A stretch of 7,700 nucleotides of DNA from a virus (Duplodnaviria > Heunggongvirae > Uroviricota > Caudoviricetes). The position numbers and the translations under genes are program-made. Of the stretch, positions 1 through 7,700 are shown piece by piece. The notes beneath the pieces are model-generated. The model was not told the origin of the DNA. It did no database searches and was given only the letters and a program-made list of their open reading frames with translations. Where the stretch lies: the IMG/VR virus record IMGVR_UViG_2695420698_000002. One strand, given 5' to 3'. How positions within the stretch are numbered: the stretch's first letter is position 1; the number at the start of each line of letters is the position of its first letter.

Positions 1-2126
1 AACGATACCGACGCCGGATCGCCCTGCTGCCCCCACGCATTTACTGCCCGGACTGTCAGCCTGTAGTTCCCCAGCGCCAGTTGTGTGAAGCGGTAAGTGG
101 TTTCCGTCGTCCGGGCCGTGCTGACCAGCCGCTCACTGCCGTCATCCGCTGTTACGGTCAGACGGAGCAGGAAGCTCACGCCCTTCACCACCTTCGGCGT
201 GTCCCAGCGCGCCAGCACCTGATATTCCCCGCTGTCTGCGGTGACTTCGGCAGTCAGGTGCTGCACCGCTGGCGGCGTGACACCATTCACCGTGCCGCTC
301 TGGTCGCCGTCAAAGTGCGCCCCGTTATCCACGATGGCTTCTTTTTCCGGCACATGCTGCACGGCGGTGATGGCATACGTGCCGTCGTCGTTCTCACGGA
401 TACTCACGCAGCGGAACAATCGCTGGTGCAGCGTCGGCAGCTTCAGCCCCCACACGCTGTATTCAGCAACACCGTCAGGAACACGGCTCACTTTTACCTT
501 CACGCCGTCGGTGACGGACTGGACCTCCACGCTGACCGGATTCCCCTGCCCGTCAACCAGGCTTATCAGCGTGGTGCCGGAGGATGGCAGCGTGATTTCA
601 CGGTCGAGCGTCAGCGTCCGGGTCTGGCTGTTCACCGCCAGCACGCGCCCGCCGGTGCGGATACCGGCATAGTCATCATCGCAGATTTCAATGACATCGC
701 CCGGTACATGACGAAGCCCTTCAGCACCCACGCTGAAATCCACGGTCTGCGTCTCCAGCAGTTCCGTTTTAATCAGCCACAGCCCGGCGCGGTGTGCCTG
801 CCCCCGGCTGGTACAGCCAAAGGCATCCATCTTCGTGACGTTACGACCGTAACGGACAATGGCCTGCGTATCCTCCACAAGCTCTGTCGCCGTCTCCCAG
901 CCGTTATCCGGGTCAATCCAGTTCACCTCAACGGCATTATGGCGGTCTTTCAGGGCGCTGAAACTGTAGCGGAACGGCGCGCCATCATCCGGCATCACCA
1001 CATTACTGCGGTTATAGGCCCACACCTTATCCGACTGTCGGTCCTGCACGAACGTCAGCGTCTGCCCGTTCCATACCGGCATACAGCGCATCGCCGAGCA
1101 GAAATCACTGAGCACATCCCACGCCTTGCGCTGTGTGGTCAGCCAGGCATTACAGGTGATGCGCGGCTCCGTGCTGCCAAAGCCGTCCGGCACCGACTGG
1201 TCACAGTACTGGCCGATGACATACAGCGCCCATTTATCCACATCTGCCGCACCAAGACGTTTCCCCATGCCATAGCGCGGATGGGTCAGCATATCCCACA
1301 GACACCAGGCCATGTTGTTGCTGTATGCCGGTTTTAACGTTCCGTCCCAGATACCGCTGTATTGCCGCGTCTGCGGATTATAGTTCGACGGCACCTGCAG
1401 AATGCGCCCGCGAAGATGATAATTACGGCTCACCTGCTGGCTGCCGAACTGCTCCGAATCCACCTGTACGCCGACCAGTGCCGTGTTCGGGTAGCACTGT
1501 TTCACATCGATGATTTCGGTGTATGACGACCAGAGCGTTTTGTTCTGCAGCTGGTCTGTGGTGCTGTCCGGTGTCATCCTGCGCATCCGGATATTAAACG
1601 GGCGCGGCGGCAGGTTATCCACCACCACCGAGGCCAGATACTGCGAGGTGGTTTTGCCCTTAATGGTGATGTCTTTTTCCGTCACCCAGCCACCGTTACG
1701 CTGTATCTGAACCAGCAGGCGAACTTCAGACGGATTCCTGTCTCCCTTTGAGGTGGTTTCCACCAGTGCCTGTACACCGAAGGTAAAACGCAGTCGGTCA
1801 ATGTTTGCCGACGTGATGGTCCGGGTGATCGGCGTGTCATATTTCACTTCCGTACCCAGCACCGTCTCGGAGCCGGAGGATTCAAATCCCTCCGGCGGTG
1901 ACTGCTCCTGCTCACCTGCCCGGAACACCACCGTGACGCCGGAGATGTTGGTATTCCCCTCACTGTCCAGCACCGGCGTACTGTTCAGCAGCACGCTTTT
2001 TAATCCATCCACCGGACCTTCAACCGGCCCTTCGCTGATGGCATCGATCACACTCAGCAGCTGCGTGGACTTCAGGTTGTCCTTCGCTTCGCGCGGGGTA
2101 TGCCCCTTACTGCTGCCTTTACCCAT
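1..2126 (-). CDS. J: Tail-tip host-specificity / central tail fibre protein (lambda gpJ-type), N-terminal ~708 codons; 3' end beyond window start
   Basis: Minus-strand ATG at 2126 (plus 'cat' 2124-2126) encodes MGKGSSKGHTPREAKDNLKSTQ. The ORF track lists no minus-strand ORF anywhere in 1-2186, consistent with this frame staying open to the window edge. My own translation of the reverse complement gives PAYSNNMAWCLWDMLTHPRYGMG (~1270-1340) and LTVRAVNAWGQQGDPASVSF (1-59), both matching lambda gpJ as I recall it. gpJ is 1132 aa, so the receptor-binding C-terminus is outside the window. Confidence 0.9.
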   Translation of the reverse strand, partial: MGKGSSKGHTPREAKDNLKSTQLLSVIDAISEGPVEGPVDGLKSVLLNSTPVLDSEGNTNISGVTVVFRAGEQEQSPPEGFESSGSETVLGTEVKYDTPITRTITSANIDRLRFTFGVQALVETTSKGDRNPSEVRLLVQIQRNGGWVTEKDITIKGKTTSQYLASVVVDNLPPRPFNIRMRRMTPDSTTDQLQNKTLWSSYTEIIDVKQCYPNTALVGVQVDSEQFGSQQVSRNYHLRGRILQVPSNYNPQTRQYSGIWDGTLKPAYSNNMAWCLWDMLTHPRYGMGKRLGAADVDKWALYVIGQYCDQSVPDGFGSTEPRITCNAWLTTQRKAWDVLSDFCSAMRCMPVWNGQTLTFVQDRQSDKVWAYNRSNVVMPDDGAPFRYSFSALKDRHNAVEVNWIDPDNGWETATELVEDTQAIVRYGRNVTKMDAFGCTSRGQAHRAGLWLIKTELLETQTVDFSVGAEGLRHVPGDVIEICDDDYAGIRTGGRVLAVNSQTRTLTLDREITLPSSGTTLISLVDGQGNPVSVEVQSVTDGVKVKVSRVPDGVAEYSVWGLKLPTLHQRLFRCVSIRENDDGTYAITAVQHVPEKEAIVDNGAHFDGDQSGTVNGVTPPAVQHLTAEVTADSGEYQVLARWDTPKVVKGVSFLLRLTVTADDGSERLVSTARTTETTYRFTQLALGNYRLTVRAVNAWGQQGDPASVS

Positions 2127-2186: not shown

Positions 2187-2898
2187 TCAGCGACCAATCA
2201 CCACAACCTGACCACCGTCCCCTTCGTCTGCCGTGCTGATCTCCTGAGATACCACACGTGACCCCACGCGCATTTCACCATACAGAACAGGCATAACATT
2301 GCCCTGGGCAACCATGTTATCCAGTGAGGAGAAATAGGTGTTCTGCTTACCGTTATCCGTTGTCTGTGTGCGGGGAGTTCTGGCTTTCGGTGCCAGCATC
2401 TGAGCCACACCGCCGAGCACCATACTGGCACCGAGAGAAAACAGAATGCCGGTCATACCACCGGCACCAATGGCAGCCCCCCATGCTGCNNNNNNNNNNN
2501 NNNNNNNNNNNNNNNNNNNNNNNNNCTGCAAGGGTGGCTCCGGCGGTAAAGAATGATCCGGCAATGGCGGCTGCTCCCAGGACAATCTGGAATACACCAC
2601 CTGACTTGGCCCCGGCGACTCTGGGAACAATATGAATCACAGCGCCGTCAGGCAGAGCCTCATGTAACTGTGCCGTTAATCCGGACGTGCTAACATCCTG
2701 CCCGGCAATACGCACCTGATACCAGCCGTCGCTCAGCTTCTGACGAAACGCAGGGAGCTGTGTGGCCATCGCCCGGATGGCTTCGGCACCCGTTTTCACA
2801 CGAAGGTCGATGCGGCGGCCAAATCGTTGCAAATCCCCGTAAAGGCAGATGCGTGCCATGCCCGGTGACGCCAGAGGGAGTGTGTGCGTCGCTGCCAT
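2187..2898 (-). CDS. I: Tail-tip assembly protein I (lambda gpI-type, 223-aa allele), interrupted by a 36-nt N run
   Basis: Start at 2898 encodes MAATHTLPLASPGMARICLYGDLQRFGRRIDL; stop is TGA (plus 'tca' 2187-2189); C-terminus is ...ISTADEGDGGQVVVIGR. The frames either side of the N run differ by one, but the flanks overlap by 4 nt (ctgc). Removing the Ns and one ctgc gives a 672-nt ORF reading ...GATLAAWGAAIGAGG..., which is contiguous gpI. Confidence 0.8.
2490..2525. other. Run of 36 N (gap or masked bases) inside I'
   Basis: Directly visible; flanked by a duplicated ctgc. Confidence 0.99.
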
Positions 2899-3422
2899 TT
2901 GTCGGTATACCTCTCTCGTTTGCTCAGTTGTTCAGGAATATGGTGCAGCAGCTCGCCGTCACCACAGTAAATGGCGGCATGATTCGGCACCGATGAACCA
3001 AAACAGCACAGCAGCACATCGCCCGGCTGCGCCGCTGACAACGGCACCTGATACAGCCCTGTGGCCTCCAGATTATCCAGATAGAGATTCTGACCGTGAC
3101 GCCACCAGTCATCCTCACGATGAAAATCCGGCATCTCAATCCCCGCCAGATGGTAAGCATCCCGGAACAGCGTGTAACAGTCCGTCACCCCGTGCTCAAA
3201 GCGCCGCCCGGTAAGATGTGGCACACAGCGGAACTTGTGAATCGCCCCCCGGCAGACCAGCCACCACGGCAAATCACTCTGCACCTGCAGCCGCCGGTCG
3301 GCCTCACTCAGCCAGGGCAGACCACCGGGGTGGCTGTGGACCAGTGCCACAATCTCACCCTGCATCTCTGCCTGCAGCCAGTCTTCCGGCGACATACGGA
3401 AATACGCCTCCGGCTCACCGGA
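2796..3422 (-). pseudogene. K: Tail-tip assembly protein K (gpK-type, MPN/JAMM + NlpC/P60), C-terminal ~208 codons, fused in frame to a J N-terminal fragment
   Basis: Lower part of the 334-aa ORF 2796..3800. After the X it reads SGEPEAYFRMSPEDWL...HSHPGGLPWLSEAD...GVTDCYTLFRDAYHLAG...ASTFV, which is collinear with residues ~40-247 of the full K copy at 4400..5143. Its 3' end overlaps the I' start, as in the intact copy. Confidence 0.75.
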
Positions 3423-3423
3423 N
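3423..3423. other. Single ambiguous base (N) at the J-fragment / K-fragment junction
   Basis: 'ccggaNgaggtggtttcc': the left flank matches K (ccggagatatt at ~5030) and the right flank matches J (gaggtggtttcc at ~1750). Confidence 0.95.
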
Positions 3424-3800
3424 GAGGTGGTTTCCACCAGTGCCTGCACACCGAAGGTCAGGCGCAGACGGTCGATGTTTGCCGACGTGATGGTCCGGGT
3501 GATCGGCGTGTCATATTTCACTTCCGTACCCAGCACCGTCTCGGAGCCGGAGGATTCAAAACCCTCCGGCGGTGTCTGCTCCTGCTCACCTGCACGGAAC
3601 ACCACCGTAACACCGGAAAAGTTTGTCTTCCCCTCGCTGTCCAGGACCGGCGTACCGTTCAGCAGCACGCTTTTTAATCCATCCACCGGACCGTCAACCG
3701 GCCCTTCGCTGATGGCATCAATCACACTCAGCAACTGCGTGGATTTCAGGTTGTCCTTCGCTTCGCGCGGGGTATGCCCCTTACTGCTGCCTTTACCCAT
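3424..3800 (-). pseudogene. J: Host-specificity protein J, N-terminal ~126-codon fragment (second, diverged copy)
   Basis: ATG at 3800 encodes MGKGSSKGHTPREAKDNLKSTQLLSVIDAISEGP...RLRLTFGVQALVETT, then switches to K sequence at the N at 3423. It differs from the copy at 1750-2126 by several substitutions, seen in the paired antisense ORFs 1753..2142 and 3427..3816. Confidence 0.75.
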
Positions 3801-3822
3801 TCCTCACGCTCCATAAACGACA

Positions 3823-3842
3823 AAACCGCCCGCAGGCGGTTT
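3823..3842 (-). other. Perfect 8-bp hairpin in the I-J intergenic spacer (copy 2)
   Basis: aaaccgcc-cgca-ggcggttt. On the sense (minus) strand it is followed by TTTTGTCGTTT and lies ~20 nt upstream of the J-fragment ATG. Possible RNA structure or weak attenuator; function not established. Confidence 0.35.
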
Positions 3843-3860
3843 CACATAAAACATTTTGCA

Positions 3861-4502
3861 TCAGCGACCAATCACCACAACCTGACCACCATCCCCTTCG
3901 TCTGCCGTGCTGATCTCCTGAGAAACCACACGTGACCCCACGCGCATTTCACCGTACAGAACGGGCAGAACATTGCCCTGGGCAACCATGTTATCCAGTG
4001 ACGAGAAATACGTGTTCTGCTTACCGTTATCCGTTGTCTGTGTACGGGGAGTTCTGGCTTTCGGTGCCAGCATCTGTGCAACACCGCCAAGCGTCATACT
4101 GGCACCGAGAGAAAACAGCAGATTACTCGCCATAATTCCTACCCCCGGCATCCATATAGCAACCGCCATAACAGCCGCCCCCAGCACCGCCTGAAACACA
4201 CCGCCACTTTTAGCTCCCACCAGACGCGGTACTATGTGGATCACTGCACCATTTGCCAGCGGCTCATTAAGACGGGCAGACAATTCGGTTTCACCTGCAT
4301 CACGCCCGGCAATGCGCACCTGATACCAGCCGTCACTCAGTTTCTGACGAAACGCCGGGAGCTGTGTGGCCAGTGCCCGGATGGCTTCAGCCCCCGTTTT
4401 CACACGAAGGTCGATGCGGCGACCAAATCGTTGTAAATCCCCGTAAAGGCAGATGCGCGCCATGCCCGGTGACGCCAGAGGGAGTGTGTGCGTCGCTGCC
4501 AT
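3861..4502 (-). CDS. I: Tail-tip assembly protein I (gpI-type), 213-aa allele
   Basis: Complete ORF from MAATHTLPLASPGMARICLYGDLQRFGRRIDL to ...ISTADEGDGGQVVVIGR. It is 10 aa shorter than the I' allele, with the difference in the hydrophobic Gly/Ala-rich central segment. Confidence 0.9.
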   Translation of the reverse strand: MAATHTLPLASPGMARICLYGDLQRFGRRIDLRVKTGAEAIRALATQLPAFRQKLSDGWYQVRIAGRDAGETELSARLNEPLANGAVIHIVPRLVGAKSGGVFQAVLGAAVMAVAIWMPGVGIMASNLLFSLGASMTLGGVAQMLAPKARTPRTQTTDNGKQNTYFSSLDNMVAQGNVLPVLYGEMRVGSRVVSQEISTADEGDGGQVVVIGR

Positions 4503-5143
4503 TTGTCGGTGTACCTCTCTCGTTTGCTCAGTTGTTCAGGAATATGGTGCAGCAGCTCGCCGTCACCACAGTAAATGGCGGCATGATTCGGCACCGATGA
4601 ACCAAAACAGCACAGCAGCACATCGCCCGGCTGTGCCTCTGTCAGTGCGACACGGTAAAAACCCGTCACCTCCATATTGTCAAGATAGAGATTCTGACCG
4701 TTACGCCACCAGTCATCCCCGCGATGAAAATCCGGCATCTCAATCCCTGCCAGATGATAAGCATCCCGGAACAGCGTGTAACAGTCCGTCACCCCGTGCT
4801 CAAAGCGCCGCCCGGTGAGATGCGGCACACAGCGGAACTTGTGAATCGCCCCCCGGCAGACCAGCCACCACGGCAAATCACTCTGCACCTGCAGCCGCCG
4901 GTCGGCCTCACTCAGCCAGGGCAGACCACCGGGGTGGCTGTGGACCAGTGCCACAATCTCACCCTGCATCTCTGCCTGCAGCCAGTCTTCCGGCGACATA
5001 CGGAAATACGCCTCCGGCTCACCGGAGATATTCACGCAGGGGAAATATCTTTCCCCCTCCGGCGTTCTTACCACGAAGCCGCACGACTCCGCTGGAGCAC
5101 ATCGCCGGGCGTGCGCCAGAATCGCTGATTCTGTCTCTGTCAT
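4400..5143 (-). CDS. K: Tail-tip assembly protein K (gpK-type), 247-codon ORF with MPN/JAMM motif and NlpC/P60-like Cys/His region
   Basis: Starts MTQTESAILAHARRCAPAESCGFVV. JAMM signature H-x-H-x7-S-x2-D is present as HSHPGGLPWLSEAD (residues ~68-81). Cys/His-containing region GVTDCYTLFRDAYH...HAAIYCGDGELLHH follows. The ATG lies 5 nt downstream of the L' stop. The ORF overlaps the I start by ~103 nt in another frame. Confidence 0.9.
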   Translation of the reverse strand: MTETESAILAHARRCAPAESCGFVVRTPEGERYFPCVNISGEPEAYFRMSPEDWLQAEMQGEIVALVHSHPGGLPWLSEADRRLQVQSDLPWWLVCRGAIHKFRCVPHLTGRRFEHGVTDCYTLFRDAYHLAGIEMPDFHRGDDWWRNGQNLYLDNMEVTGFYRVALTEAQPGDVLLCCFGSSVPNHAAIYCGDGELLHHIPEQLSKRERYTDKWQRRTHSLWRHRAWRASAFTGIYNDLVAASTFV

Positions 5144-5148
5144 GGGAT

Positions 5149-5847
5149 TTACTGCGAAAGTTTGTTAATGGAAAGGAAGCCGCCAAAGTTGCCGACGTTA
5201 TTGCGAAACTTACAGCCACTCAGGCATTTGCTGCATTTATCCTTCGTGATGTCGGACGTTGGCTGGTCATATTCATCCGCGACCGCCGGACCGTGATAAC
5301 CGCACTCATCGCCGCGATAGGTCCAGGTGCAGGTGTTGGCCAGCATGATACGTCCCGGAAAAACAGCGCCATCTGTTTCCGTCGGCGTGGACAGTACAAA
5401 AGAGGCACTCACCGCGCTCAGTTCGCTGCACTGCTCAATGCGCCAGCGGCTGATCACCTCCTGCTCCGGATCGGCGTCACTGTTTCCGTTGACGAAGTTC
5501 ACCGCATCCAGAAAACGGGCGTAAACCTTACGCCGGACCACCGTTCCGCCGACCAGACTCTGTAGATCTTCCGCCATCCCGGTGACCATACCGTACAGGT
5601 TAGAAACCATCAGCGTGGGGCGCGTACTGGTGCCTTTGCCATTCAGTTCAAAACCACTCCCCTGAATGGGATACGGCTGATACTGTCGCCCCTGCCAGGT
5701 GACCGGCTCACCTTTTTCGTTCTGCTCATTACAGAAAAAATAACGTTCTCCACCGACCTCTGTCAGATCGATTTCCCAGAGCACCACGCTGGCCGACTGC
5801 TCCGCACGGGTGCATTCATTCAGTGTTTCCTGCCGGATATCCTGCAT
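5149..5847 (-). CDS. L: Tail-tip assembly protein L (lambda gpL-type), 232 aa
   Basis: MQDIRQETLNECTRAEQSASVVLWEIDLTEVGGERYFFCNEQNEKGEPVTWQGRQYQ...CSKCLSGC...FLSINKLSQ. Length and sequence match lambda gpL as I recall it. The C-terminal cysteine cluster is present. The start overlaps the M' stop (TGATG). Confidence 0.92.
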   Translation of the reverse strand: MQDIRQETLNECTRAEQSASVVLWEIDLTEVGGERYFFCNEQNEKGEPVTWQGRQYQPYPIQGSGFELNGKGTSTRPTLMVSNLYGMVTGMAEDLQSLVGGTVVRRKVYARFLDAVNFVNGNSDADPEQEVISRWRIEQCSELSAVSASFVLSTPTETDGAVFPGRIMLANTCTWTYRGDECGYHGPAVADEYDQPTSDITKDKCSKCLSGCKFRNNVGNFGGFLSINKLSQ

Positions 5848-6125
5848 CAGTTCACCACCTGTTCAAACTCTGCGCTGAACTCAACACGCAGCATACTGAC
5901 CCGCGACGACCATTTTGCGCAGGTCACCTTTATCTGCCGCCACTCATAAGGCGGCGTCCACAGAAAGGCTTTCCAGCCCCCGTGCTCTTCCAGAAACGAC
6001 TCCAGTACCATGGCCTCCTCACGGGGGACAGAAAGCGTCACGCTGTACGTTTTCAGGTTGGCATTCAGCCCGGCAGGCGCTCGCTGGGAATAGCCATCAC
6101 CAAAGCGCACCTTTCTTACAGAAGG
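5847..6125 (-). pseudogene. M: Tail-tip assembly protein M, diverged allele, C-terminal ~92 codons; 5' end replaced by N run and K sequence
   Basis: PSVRKVRFGDGYSQRAPAGLNANLKTYSVTLSVPREEAMVLESFLEEHGGWKAFLWTPPYEWRQIKVTCAKWSSRVSMLRVEFSAEFEQVVN aligns collinearly with residues ~18-109 of the M at 7261..7590 (shared GDGY, TYSV, FLExHGG, WTPPY, KW, FEQVV) but with many substitutions. Stop is TGA at 5847-5849. Confidence 0.7.
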
Positions 6126-6136
6126 NNNNNNNNNNN
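6126..6136. other. Run of 11 N at the K-fragment / M'-fragment junction
   Basis: Directly visible. The right flank (ccggcatctcaatccctgcc) is K sequence, identical to ~4733-4752; the left flank is M' sequence. Confidence 0.99.
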
Positions 6137-6548
6137 CCGGCATCTCAATCCCTGCCAGATGATAAGCATCCCGGAACAGCGTGTAACAGTCCGTCACCCC
6201 GTGCTCAAAGCGCCGCCCGGTGAGATGCGGCACACAGCGGAACTTGTGAATCGCCCCCCGGCAGACCAGCCACCACGGCAAATCACTCTGCACCTGCAGC
6301 CGCCGGTCAGCCTCACTCAGCCAGGGCAGACCACCGGGATGACTGTGGACCAGCGCCACAATCTCACCCTGCATTTGTGCCCGCAGCCAGTCCTCCGGAG
6401 CCATCCGGAACCGTTCCTCCGGCTCACCGGAGATATTCTCGCTGGGAAGATACCTGTCTCCCTCCGGCGTTCTTACCACGAAGCCACACGACTCCGCTGG
6501 CGCACATCGCCGGGCGTGCGCCAGAATCGCTGATTCTGTCTGTGTCAT
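6137..6548 (-). pseudogene. K: Tail-tip assembly protein K, N-terminal ~138 codons (diverged allele), truncated at the N run and fused in frame to the M' fragment
   Basis: ATG at 6548 (plus 'cat' 6546-6548), 4 nt after the L stop. Encodes MTQTESAILAHARRCAPAESCGFVVRTPEGDRYLPSENISGEPEERFRMAPEDWLRAQMQ...HSHPGGLPWLSEAD...HLAGIEMP and then runs into the Ns. It differs from the K at 4400..5143 at several residues. Confidence 0.75.
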
Positions 6549-6552
6549 GGAT

Positions 6553-7251
6553 TTACTGAGAAAGTTTATTGATGGAAAGGAAACCGCCGAAATTACCGGT
6601 ATTGTTGCGCAACTCACACCCGCGCATACACTTGCTGCATTTGTCCTTCCGGATATCCGTCGTTGGTTTGTCGAACTCGTCAGCCACTGCCCTGCCCGTG
6701 TAACCACACTCATCAGAACGGTAAGTCCACATACAGGTATTCGCCAGCATGATACGCCCCGGGAAAACCGCGCCATCCGTCTCCGTTGGTGTGGCCAGCA
6801 CAAAAGAGGCACTGACCGCGCTCAGTTCGCTGCACTGCTCGATGCGCCAGCGGCTGATCACCTCCTGTTCCGGATCGGCGTCGCTGTTTCCGTTGACGAA
6901 GTTCACCGCATCCAGAAAACGGGCGTAAACCTTACGCCTGACCACCGTTCCGCCGACCAGACTCTGCAGGTCTTCCGCCATCCCGGTGACCATTCCGTGC
7001 AGGTTAGAAACCGTCAGTGTCGGACGGGCAGCACTGCCCTTGCCGTTCAGTTCAAATCCCGTCCCCTGAATGGGGTATGCCTGATACTGCCGCCCCTGCC
7101 AGGTAACCGGCTCACCTTTTTCGTTCTGCTCATTACAGAAAAAATAACGTTCTCCACCGACCTCTGTCAGATCGATTTCCCAGAGCACCACCTGGGCTGA
7201 CTGAGTGAGGCGTGTCGTCTCATGATGTGTTTCCTGTGGAATATCCTGCAT
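6553..7251 (-). CDS. L: Tail-tip assembly protein L (gpL-type), 232 aa, diverged allele
   Basis: MQDIPQETHHETTRLTQSAQVVLWEIDLTEVGGERYFFCNEQNEKGEPVTWQGRQYQ...CSKCMRGC...FLSINKLSQ. Same length as L', with substitutions clustered at the N-terminus and around the cysteine region. Confidence 0.9.
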   Translation of the reverse strand: MQDIPQETHHETTRLTQSAQVVLWEIDLTEVGGERYFFCNEQNEKGEPVTWQGRQYQAYPIQGTGFELNGKGSAARPTLTVSNLHGMVTGMAEDLQSLVGGTVVRRKVYARFLDAVNFVNGNSDADPEQEVISRWRIEQCSELSAVSASFVLATPTETDGAVFPGRIMLANTCMWTYRSDECGYTGRAVADEFDKPTTDIRKDKCSKCMRGCELRNNTGNFGGFLSINKLSQ

Positions 7252-7260
7252 CAGAGCCTC

Positions 7261-7590
7261 CTATGCCACGACCTGTTCAAAATCTGCCGTTATGGTTACC
7301 CACAACGCCCCCACGCTTGCCGACCATTTACGACAAACCACCCTGATCGGCTTCCAGTCATAAGGTGGCGTCCACTGAAATGCGCGGACGCCACCGTGCC
7401 GTTCCAGAAAGGCTTTTAAAAATGGGTGTTCACCTTTACGAACACGTATCTTCACGCTGTAAGTCGACAACTGGTTATTCAGTCCCGCCGCACGACGCTG
7501 TTCATAACCATCGCCCAGCTTCACTGTCACCACTTTCGGCTCTGATACCACATTCATATCCGGGCGCACTTTCCAGTGAAACGTCTCCAT
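7261..7590 (-). CDS. M: Tail-tip assembly protein M (lambda gpM-type), 109 aa
   Basis: METFHWKVRPDMNVVSEPKVVTVKLGDGYEQRRAAGLNNQLSTYSVKIRVRKGEHPFLKAFLERHGGVRAFQWTPPYDWKPIRVVCRKWSASVGALWVTITADFEQVVA. Length matches lambda gpM. Position is between the H end and L. Confidence 0.9.
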   Translation of the reverse strand: METFHWKVRPDMNVVSEPKVVTVKLGDGYEQRRAAGLNNQLSTYSVKIRVRKGEHPFLKAFLERHGGVRAFQWTPPYDWKPIRVVCRKWSASVGALWVTITADFEQVVA

Positions 7591-7700
7591 TACCGGTATG
7601 CTCCACTTAACCGGCCACCATCACGGGCCTGCTGTTGCATAAAGTCCGCGGCCGCTTTTTTCCCGAGGTCATAAACCACCTTCAGGGCAGCCGGACCTAT
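7590..7700 (-). CDS. H: Tape-measure protein (gpH-type), last 36 codons plus stop; 5' end beyond window
   Basis: My translation of the only open minus-strand frame gives IGPAALKVVYDLGKKAAADFMQQQARDGGRLSGAYR, ending in a TAA that shares its last A with the M start (TAATG). The other two frames have stops within the first 20 nt. Assignment is by synteny (H precedes M in lambda); the peptide was not matched from memory. Confidence 0.6.
   Translation of the reverse strand: MGPAALKVVYDLGKKAAADFMQQQARDGGRLSGAYR

Follow-up and report, generated by a model that had tools for sequence, protein, structure and literature searches.

An in-frame junction of tail genes K and M in a small draft scaffold is almost certainly a scaffolding product of two prophage tail modules

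Tail genes of the window and the K::M' open reading frame

The window, i.e., the whole stretch of 7,700 nt that was analysed, is the reverse complement of the entire record GCA_001257415.1:CXCP01000192.1 (locus L245), one small WGS scaffold, which was reached by an exact-protein look-up with the hybrid 247-aa K of its block C. Three runs of N, at positions 2490-2525 (36 N), 3423 (1 N) and 6126-6136 (11 N), separate the N-free blocks A (1-2489), B (2526-3422), C (3424-6125) and D (6137-7700), and all genes are located on the minus strand. In minus-strand order, block D contains the end of H, M, L and K (codons 1-137); block C contains M' (18-109), L', K', I' and J' (1-125); block B contains K'' (~42-247) and the 5' part of I''; and block A contains the 3' part of I'' and J'' (1-708). 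Two prophage tail modules, designated P1 and P2, account for every determined base of the window.

Block D was assigned to P1. It starts with the 3' end of a tape-measure (H) remnant (7591-7700), recognised from its translation; the spot upstream of M is occupied by ORFs of 121-127 aa in L227, L228 and L235. The remnant is followed by an intact 109-aa M (7261-7590; Phage_min_tail 1-108), whose exact protein was found in CP000038.1 and other chromosomes, by a 232-aa L (6553-7251; Pfam Phage_tail_L, E 8e-97) and by the N-terminal 137 codons plus one base of K (6137-6548; Prok-JAB at aa 3-98). The whole block differed by one mismatch in 1,564 nt from ten megabase-scale NCBI records. Beyond the 11-N run, block C opens with P2 genes: codons 18-109 and the stop codon of a lambda gpM-like M' (5847-6125; Phage_min_tail 13-108 of 108), a 232-aa L' (5149-5847; Phage_tail_L, E 1e-100; exact protein in CP104423.1 at ~1.30 Mb) and the N-terminal 80 codons of K (4904-5143), which were 100% identical to the P2-type loci L084, L039, L089 and L027 and 89% identical to P1-type loci. 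After an 80-nt stretch identical in P1 and P2 (4824-4903), the remainder of the block (3424-4823) belongs to P1 and comprises the remaining part of K, I' (3861-4502) and codons 1-125 of J' (3424-3800), with 99.85% identity to L141, L194 and L196, where it is contiguous with D. The single N at 3423 joins J' to K'', which extends from approximately aa 42 to its end and is followed by the 5' part of I'' (2526-3422; P2, 100% identical to L084). The 36-N gap (2490-2525) lies inside I'' and breaks its frame. Positions 1-2489, again of P2, hold the remaining 3' part of I'' together with codons 1-708 of J'' (start 2126; Pfam FNIII-A_GpJ, Phage-tail_3 and Ig_J). Two short duplications are present within the window, 6137-6308 of D being equal to 4732-4903 of C and 3300-3422 of B to 4904-5026 of C.

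The K::M' ORF runs on the minus strand from 6548 to 5847 (702 nt, 233 codons and a stop codon). It is composed of 137 complete K codons (MTQTES...HLAGIEMP; 412 nt, that is, 137 codons and one base), four X codons formed by this one K base and the 11 N, and 92 codons of M' (PSVRKVRFGDGY...EQVVN) with the stop codon; the N run is thus placed exactly between the two parts. Pfam assigned Prok-JAB to aa 3-98 (E 5e-14) and Phage_min_tail to aa 138-232 (profile 13-108 of 108, E 9e-34). The preliminary description had correctly reported an in-frame ORF made of K, 11 N and the C-terminal ~92 aa of M', in which K precedes M' and the usual order of M and K is inverted. The K part was also rightly identified, its length being 137 aa and not the ~138 aa given there, and the JAMM motif is indeed kept (HSHP...SEAD). 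The NlpC/P60-like half, described as lost, is missing only for the most part: the domain starts at aa 111 of intact K (Pfam), and its first ~27 residues are retained.

Each half of the ORF keeps its native frame. That the frame stays open is due only to the total length (412 + 11 + 279), which happens to be a multiple of three; this is a 1-in-3 event for an arbitrary N count and no more than chance. Members of the gpK family carry JAB/MPN together with a complete NlpC/P60 domain and are encoded between L and I; the K::M' ORF has Prok-JAB only. Members of the gpM family contain the full ~108-residue domain and are encoded between H and L, and here the match covers profile positions 13-108 and is located after K. 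In a natural JAB + gpM fusion the domain boundary would be crossed by uninterrupted determined sequence, whereas four codons are undetermined at this point of the ORF. A public gene collection includes the ORF among its called genes (L245 1153-1854), with 185 product residues and no Pfam match on record, and the 233-aa translation itself was not on record in the exact-protein look-up.

Sequences flanking the 11-N run in genomes and metagenomes

When compared with the canonical M-L-K-I-J module of L001, from a complete E. coli genome, blocks D, C and B+A formed three staggered, overlapping copies, with backward jumps of 1,393 nt at the 11-N junction and 1,632 nt at the 1-N junction. Blocks D and C, each taken alone, were found as one colinear piece over 100% of their length in thousands of complete E. 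coli genomes, and A+B gave two colinear pieces, divided at the 36-N run, over 99%; the best block identity among these genomes was only ~96%. A junction-spanning query was recovered from complete E. coli genomes only as two pieces spanning 1,394 nt in permuted M-L-K order.

The 50 nt of M' that end at the gap were matched exactly in at least 119 IMG/VR contigs and in L001. In 120 of 120 of these loci the following bases were GGCCGAAGCCACATCCAT... or single-base variants of it, encoding the M' N-terminus MKTFRWKVKPGMDVASA, and at none of them (0/120) was the M' end followed by K. On the other side of the gap, block D was present in the IMG/VR contigs L141, L194 and L196 at 99.7-99.8% identity and ran on there into positions 4731 to 3424 of block C at 99.85%. 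The K side continued into the K C-terminus in three IMG/VR contigs and in ten megabase-scale NCBI records, gap-free in the latter, and the true continuation of the K part (6137-6548) is window position 4731 downward.

At each of the 19 public places listed, M, L and K are three distinct genes, arranged M-L-K. The junction was also sought with a pattern in which the last 21 nt ahead of the gap and the first 22 nt behind it are separated by any 0-30 nt. It recovered the window itself as a positive control; neither the 2.9 million IMG/VR contigs nor the JGI metagenome contigs gave a match. Genome-contig scans for the N-containing junction and for the M' 50-nt end also gave no match. The JAB + gpM architecture did not recur as a DNA junction in complete E. 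coli genomes, IMG/VR or JGI metagenome contigs.

Reconstruction of modules P1 and P2 and the switch within block C

P1 was rebuilt as the reverse complement of D followed by that of C 3424-4731 (2,872 nt) and showed three mismatches and no gaps against each of ten megabase-scale NCBI records. These records are the places listed for the exact M protein; seven of them have chromosome-type CP accessions, including CP000038.1, which is Shigella sonnei Ss046 (PMC6562246). P2, rebuilt from the reverse complements of C 4904-6125, B 2526-3299 and A 1-2485 (4,481 nt), showed two mismatches and no gaps against L236 (CP104423.1), L237 and L244. Both reconstructions therefore reached an identity of 99.9% or better, without gaps, to finished relatives. 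The two modules occupy the same strand of CP104423.1, P2 at ~1.30 Mb and P1 at ~1.99 Mb, with ~687 kb between them; the separation in JBEAAA010000004.1 is ~686 kb. Consistently, the exact-protein look-up placed L' of block C elsewhere than the P1 M in some of the same records. On comparison with these relatives, the re-ordered blocks are two ordinary M-L-K-I-J tail modules. The isolate is probably of Shigella type, as P1 was found at 99.9% in ten megabase-scale records, one of them S. sonnei Ss046, and complete E. coli genomes reached ~96%.

The real genes underneath the ORF are a 247-aa tail-tip assembly protein K with JAB and NlpC/P60 domains and a 109-aa tail-tip protein M. The K fragment resembles lambda gpK (Prok-JAB + NlpC/P60) in its JAB/JAMM domain and in its position after L; it differs in that the K of the record ends at aa 137, without most of NlpC/P60, and the cause of this is the scaffold and not the gene. 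The P1 reconstruction gives an intact 247-aa K with both domains, Prok-JAB and NLPC_P60, as do the 247-aa K genes of the finished chromosomes. The reconstructed protein was 93% identical to the product of an Escherichia phage PhiR55_1 gene annotated as 'tail tip assembly protein K', and at least 80% of its 247 aa were covered in 1,719 of 1,757 phage-record matches. Likewise, M' resembles lambda gpM (PF05939; PDB 8iyk chain M): the fragment matches profile positions 13-108, and the full-length P2 protein of the finished chromosomes, where the complete domain is present between H and L, is aligned over residues 1-109 with E 1.3e-70. The first 17 codons and the upstream H gene, in contrast, are missing from the record, because the contig ends there. 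In view of the match to 8iyk, the designation of M' as diverged was not borne out; P2 M' is 56% identical to the P1 M of block D, and the term therefore fits M' no more than M.

In the megabase-scale records L226-L235, the region upstream of the P1 M (locus coordinates ~5900-8000) has the appearance of a decayed prophage. IS3-family and IS1 transposase genes are located shortly upstream of M, and the ORF directly before M, where one is called, is only 54-127 aa long, has no Pfam family on record and occupies the position of the H remnant. P2 is part of a full head-tail module in the megabase-scale records, with an 853-aa tape-measure gene.

We conclude that the K::M' ORF is almost certainly a product of draft-genome scaffolding and not a gene, in which two ordinary prophage genes located ~687 kb apart have been joined. 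The preliminary description, which implied a single chimeric gene, had proposed that placement of the K and M' parts at different loci would speak against it; the finished chromosomes, CP104423.1 in particular, provide this in substance, with the K part continuing gap-free into K in the ten megabase-scale NCBI records and M' lying in the second prophage. A real K(1-137)-linker-M'(18-109) fusion gene, formed in this strain by illegitimate recombination or by the tandem duplication of part of the tail module, with the 11 N standing for unresolved bases, would agree with the open ORF, the native frames of its halves and the common strand of all blocks. We regard it as very improbable, since finished genomes carry the two flanking modules ~687 kb from each other, each flank has its true continuation at another place in the scaffold or in references at 99.9%, the IMG/VR and JGI metagenome contigs searched do not contain the junction, the other two N sites of the record are discontinuities as well, one of them with overlapping flanks, and an open frame has a prior of one third. 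A rearrangement private to this isolate is excluded by parsimony only. It is equally hard to credit that the isolate carries the K JAB domain fused in frame to most of gpM, with the 11 N hiding a short real linker; if true, a JAMM-type domain would be delivered within a tail-tip structural protein.

The passage of block C from one module to the other was mapped over the 295 nt common to blocks B, C and D. Block C carries the P1 alleles (those of D) up to offset 92 and the P2 alleles (those of B) from offset 173 onward; the 80 nt in between (window 4824-4903) hold no P1/P2 difference. The same 80 nt are read through by D with P1 sequence on both flanks and by B with P2 sequence on both flanks. 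Among the public gene positions that were searched, CXCP01000192.1 is the only contig with the hybrid 247-aa K of block C, and no complete E. coli genome matched the full length of block C above 96.4%. A 98-nt sequence across the switch zone was considered as a marker of a hybrid prophage and rejected, as it occurs in 25 IMG/VR contigs with other K alleles and unrelated flanks.

Block C is probably a chimeric contig, in which the assembler would have crossed between the copies within the identical stretch. The alternative that K::M' is an artefact and block C is nevertheless a real third recombinant prophage, formed by homologous recombination in the 80 identical nt, seems unlikely to us. Lambdoid tail genes are naturally mosaic, the switch-zone sequence is found with other K alleles in the 25 contigs mentioned above, and a switch within perfect identity is what homologous recombination also predicts. 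Against this, the hybrid K is confined to one contig, the full-length matches of block C in complete E. coli genomes do not exceed the value given above, and D and B already cross the 80 nt with unmixed flanks, which makes a third copy needless. Even a natural third recombinant copy would not rescue the K::M' junction.

Gap lengths, further joins and the origin of the scaffold

In the near-identical references L027, L084, L089 and L039 and in the gap-free P2 reconstruction, the sequences on either side of the 36-N run share a 4-nt overlap (ctgc). Judged from this overlap, the N counts in the record are not measured gaps. All three N sites of the window are discontinuities. To the question of the preliminary description, whether the 11 N equal the missing sequence or serve as a placeholder, the answer is a placeholder, given the backward jump of 1,393 nt on the canonical module and the overlapping flanks of the 36-N run. 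It could be argued that a database or pipeline has replaced real bases with N, the flanks being truly 11 nt apart, as some collections do mask short stretches in this way. This is extremely improbable: the public NCBI copy is identical to the window, N's included, and masking could not produce the overlap of the 36-N flanks seen in four references.

At position 3423, the single N gives rise to another in-frame chimera, J' (aa 1-125)::K'' (~42-247), in an ORF at 2796-3800 on the minus strand, in which Pfam identified FNIII-A_GpJ, Prok-JAB and NLPC_P60. The public collection includes this ORF as a called gene of 334 aa (L245 3901-4905); the chimeric protein was not on record in an exact look-up, and the single-N pattern of the J::K junction gave no match in IMG/VR. 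Comparable joins were observed in two other scaffolds. In L027 (IMG/VR UViG 2698536312_000003), a single N at position 5497 joins K to the tape-measure C-terminus (K::H), and in L220 (UViG 2690316210_000007) three single-N joins at 8199, 9658 and 11532 produce an L::H chimera, a duplicated L' segment and a J::IS-transposase chimera. The recurrence of single-N chimeras in further drafts with near-identical prophages suggests that a pipeline acted systematically on a batch of assemblies.

We propose that the 7.7-kb record was scaffolded from short contigs of P1 and P2, two lambda-like prophage tail modules that lie in the same orientation ~687 kb apart in finished Shigella sonnei-type chromosomes. 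Block C passes from P2 (M'-L'-K 5' end) to P1 (K 3' end-I-J) within the 80 identical nt. D, carrying the P1 M-L-K 5' part, truly leads into the P1 half of C, and B, carrying the P2 K 3' part, truly comes after its P2 half. A scaffolder treating C as a whole unit would then have set D in front of it and B behind it. The implied gaps would have been negative and filled with short arbitrary N runs of 11 and 1. On the minus strand, the P1 K codon 137 is thereby brought up to the P2 M' codon 18. Block ends at long exact P1/P2 repeats were considered and rejected, the longest shared words being 6-43 nt; extra prophage copies in the genome may be responsible for the positions of the contig breaks.

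The record closely resembles the misassemblies, by scaffolding gaps or chimeric contigs, of multi-copy lambdoid prophages in short-read drafts of Enterobacteriaceae. Shared features are junctions exactly at N runs, flanks at different loci in finished genomes, N lengths unrelated to distances, a contig that crosses copies in 80 identical nt, an orphan scaffold with sequence of the repeat family only, and sister scaffolds (L027 and L220) with the same pattern. The sole oddity is that two of the three N junctions keep an open frame. Through such scaffold-gap chimeras, apparently new architectures can find their way into protein databases, here JAB + gpM and gpJ + JAB + NlpC/P60, and the artefact is present in downstream protein data in some form, as the false ORF is listed as a called gene in a public collection. 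The significance of the finding is limited to this caution; two known prophage regions supply the genes, all of them ordinary lambda-type versions of M, L, K, I and J, with nothing biologically new.

Two further observations concern gene calling in the same modules. The start of gene I (window 4400-4502, and its equivalents in L226-L244) is called inconsistently, with products of 180 to 223 aa, and the longest calls overlap the 3' end of K by ~100 nt. Antisense to J'', an ORF of 418 aa (window 81-1337, plus strand) is called publicly (L245 6364-7620). No Pfam family is assigned to it, and most likely it only shadows the coding frame of J.
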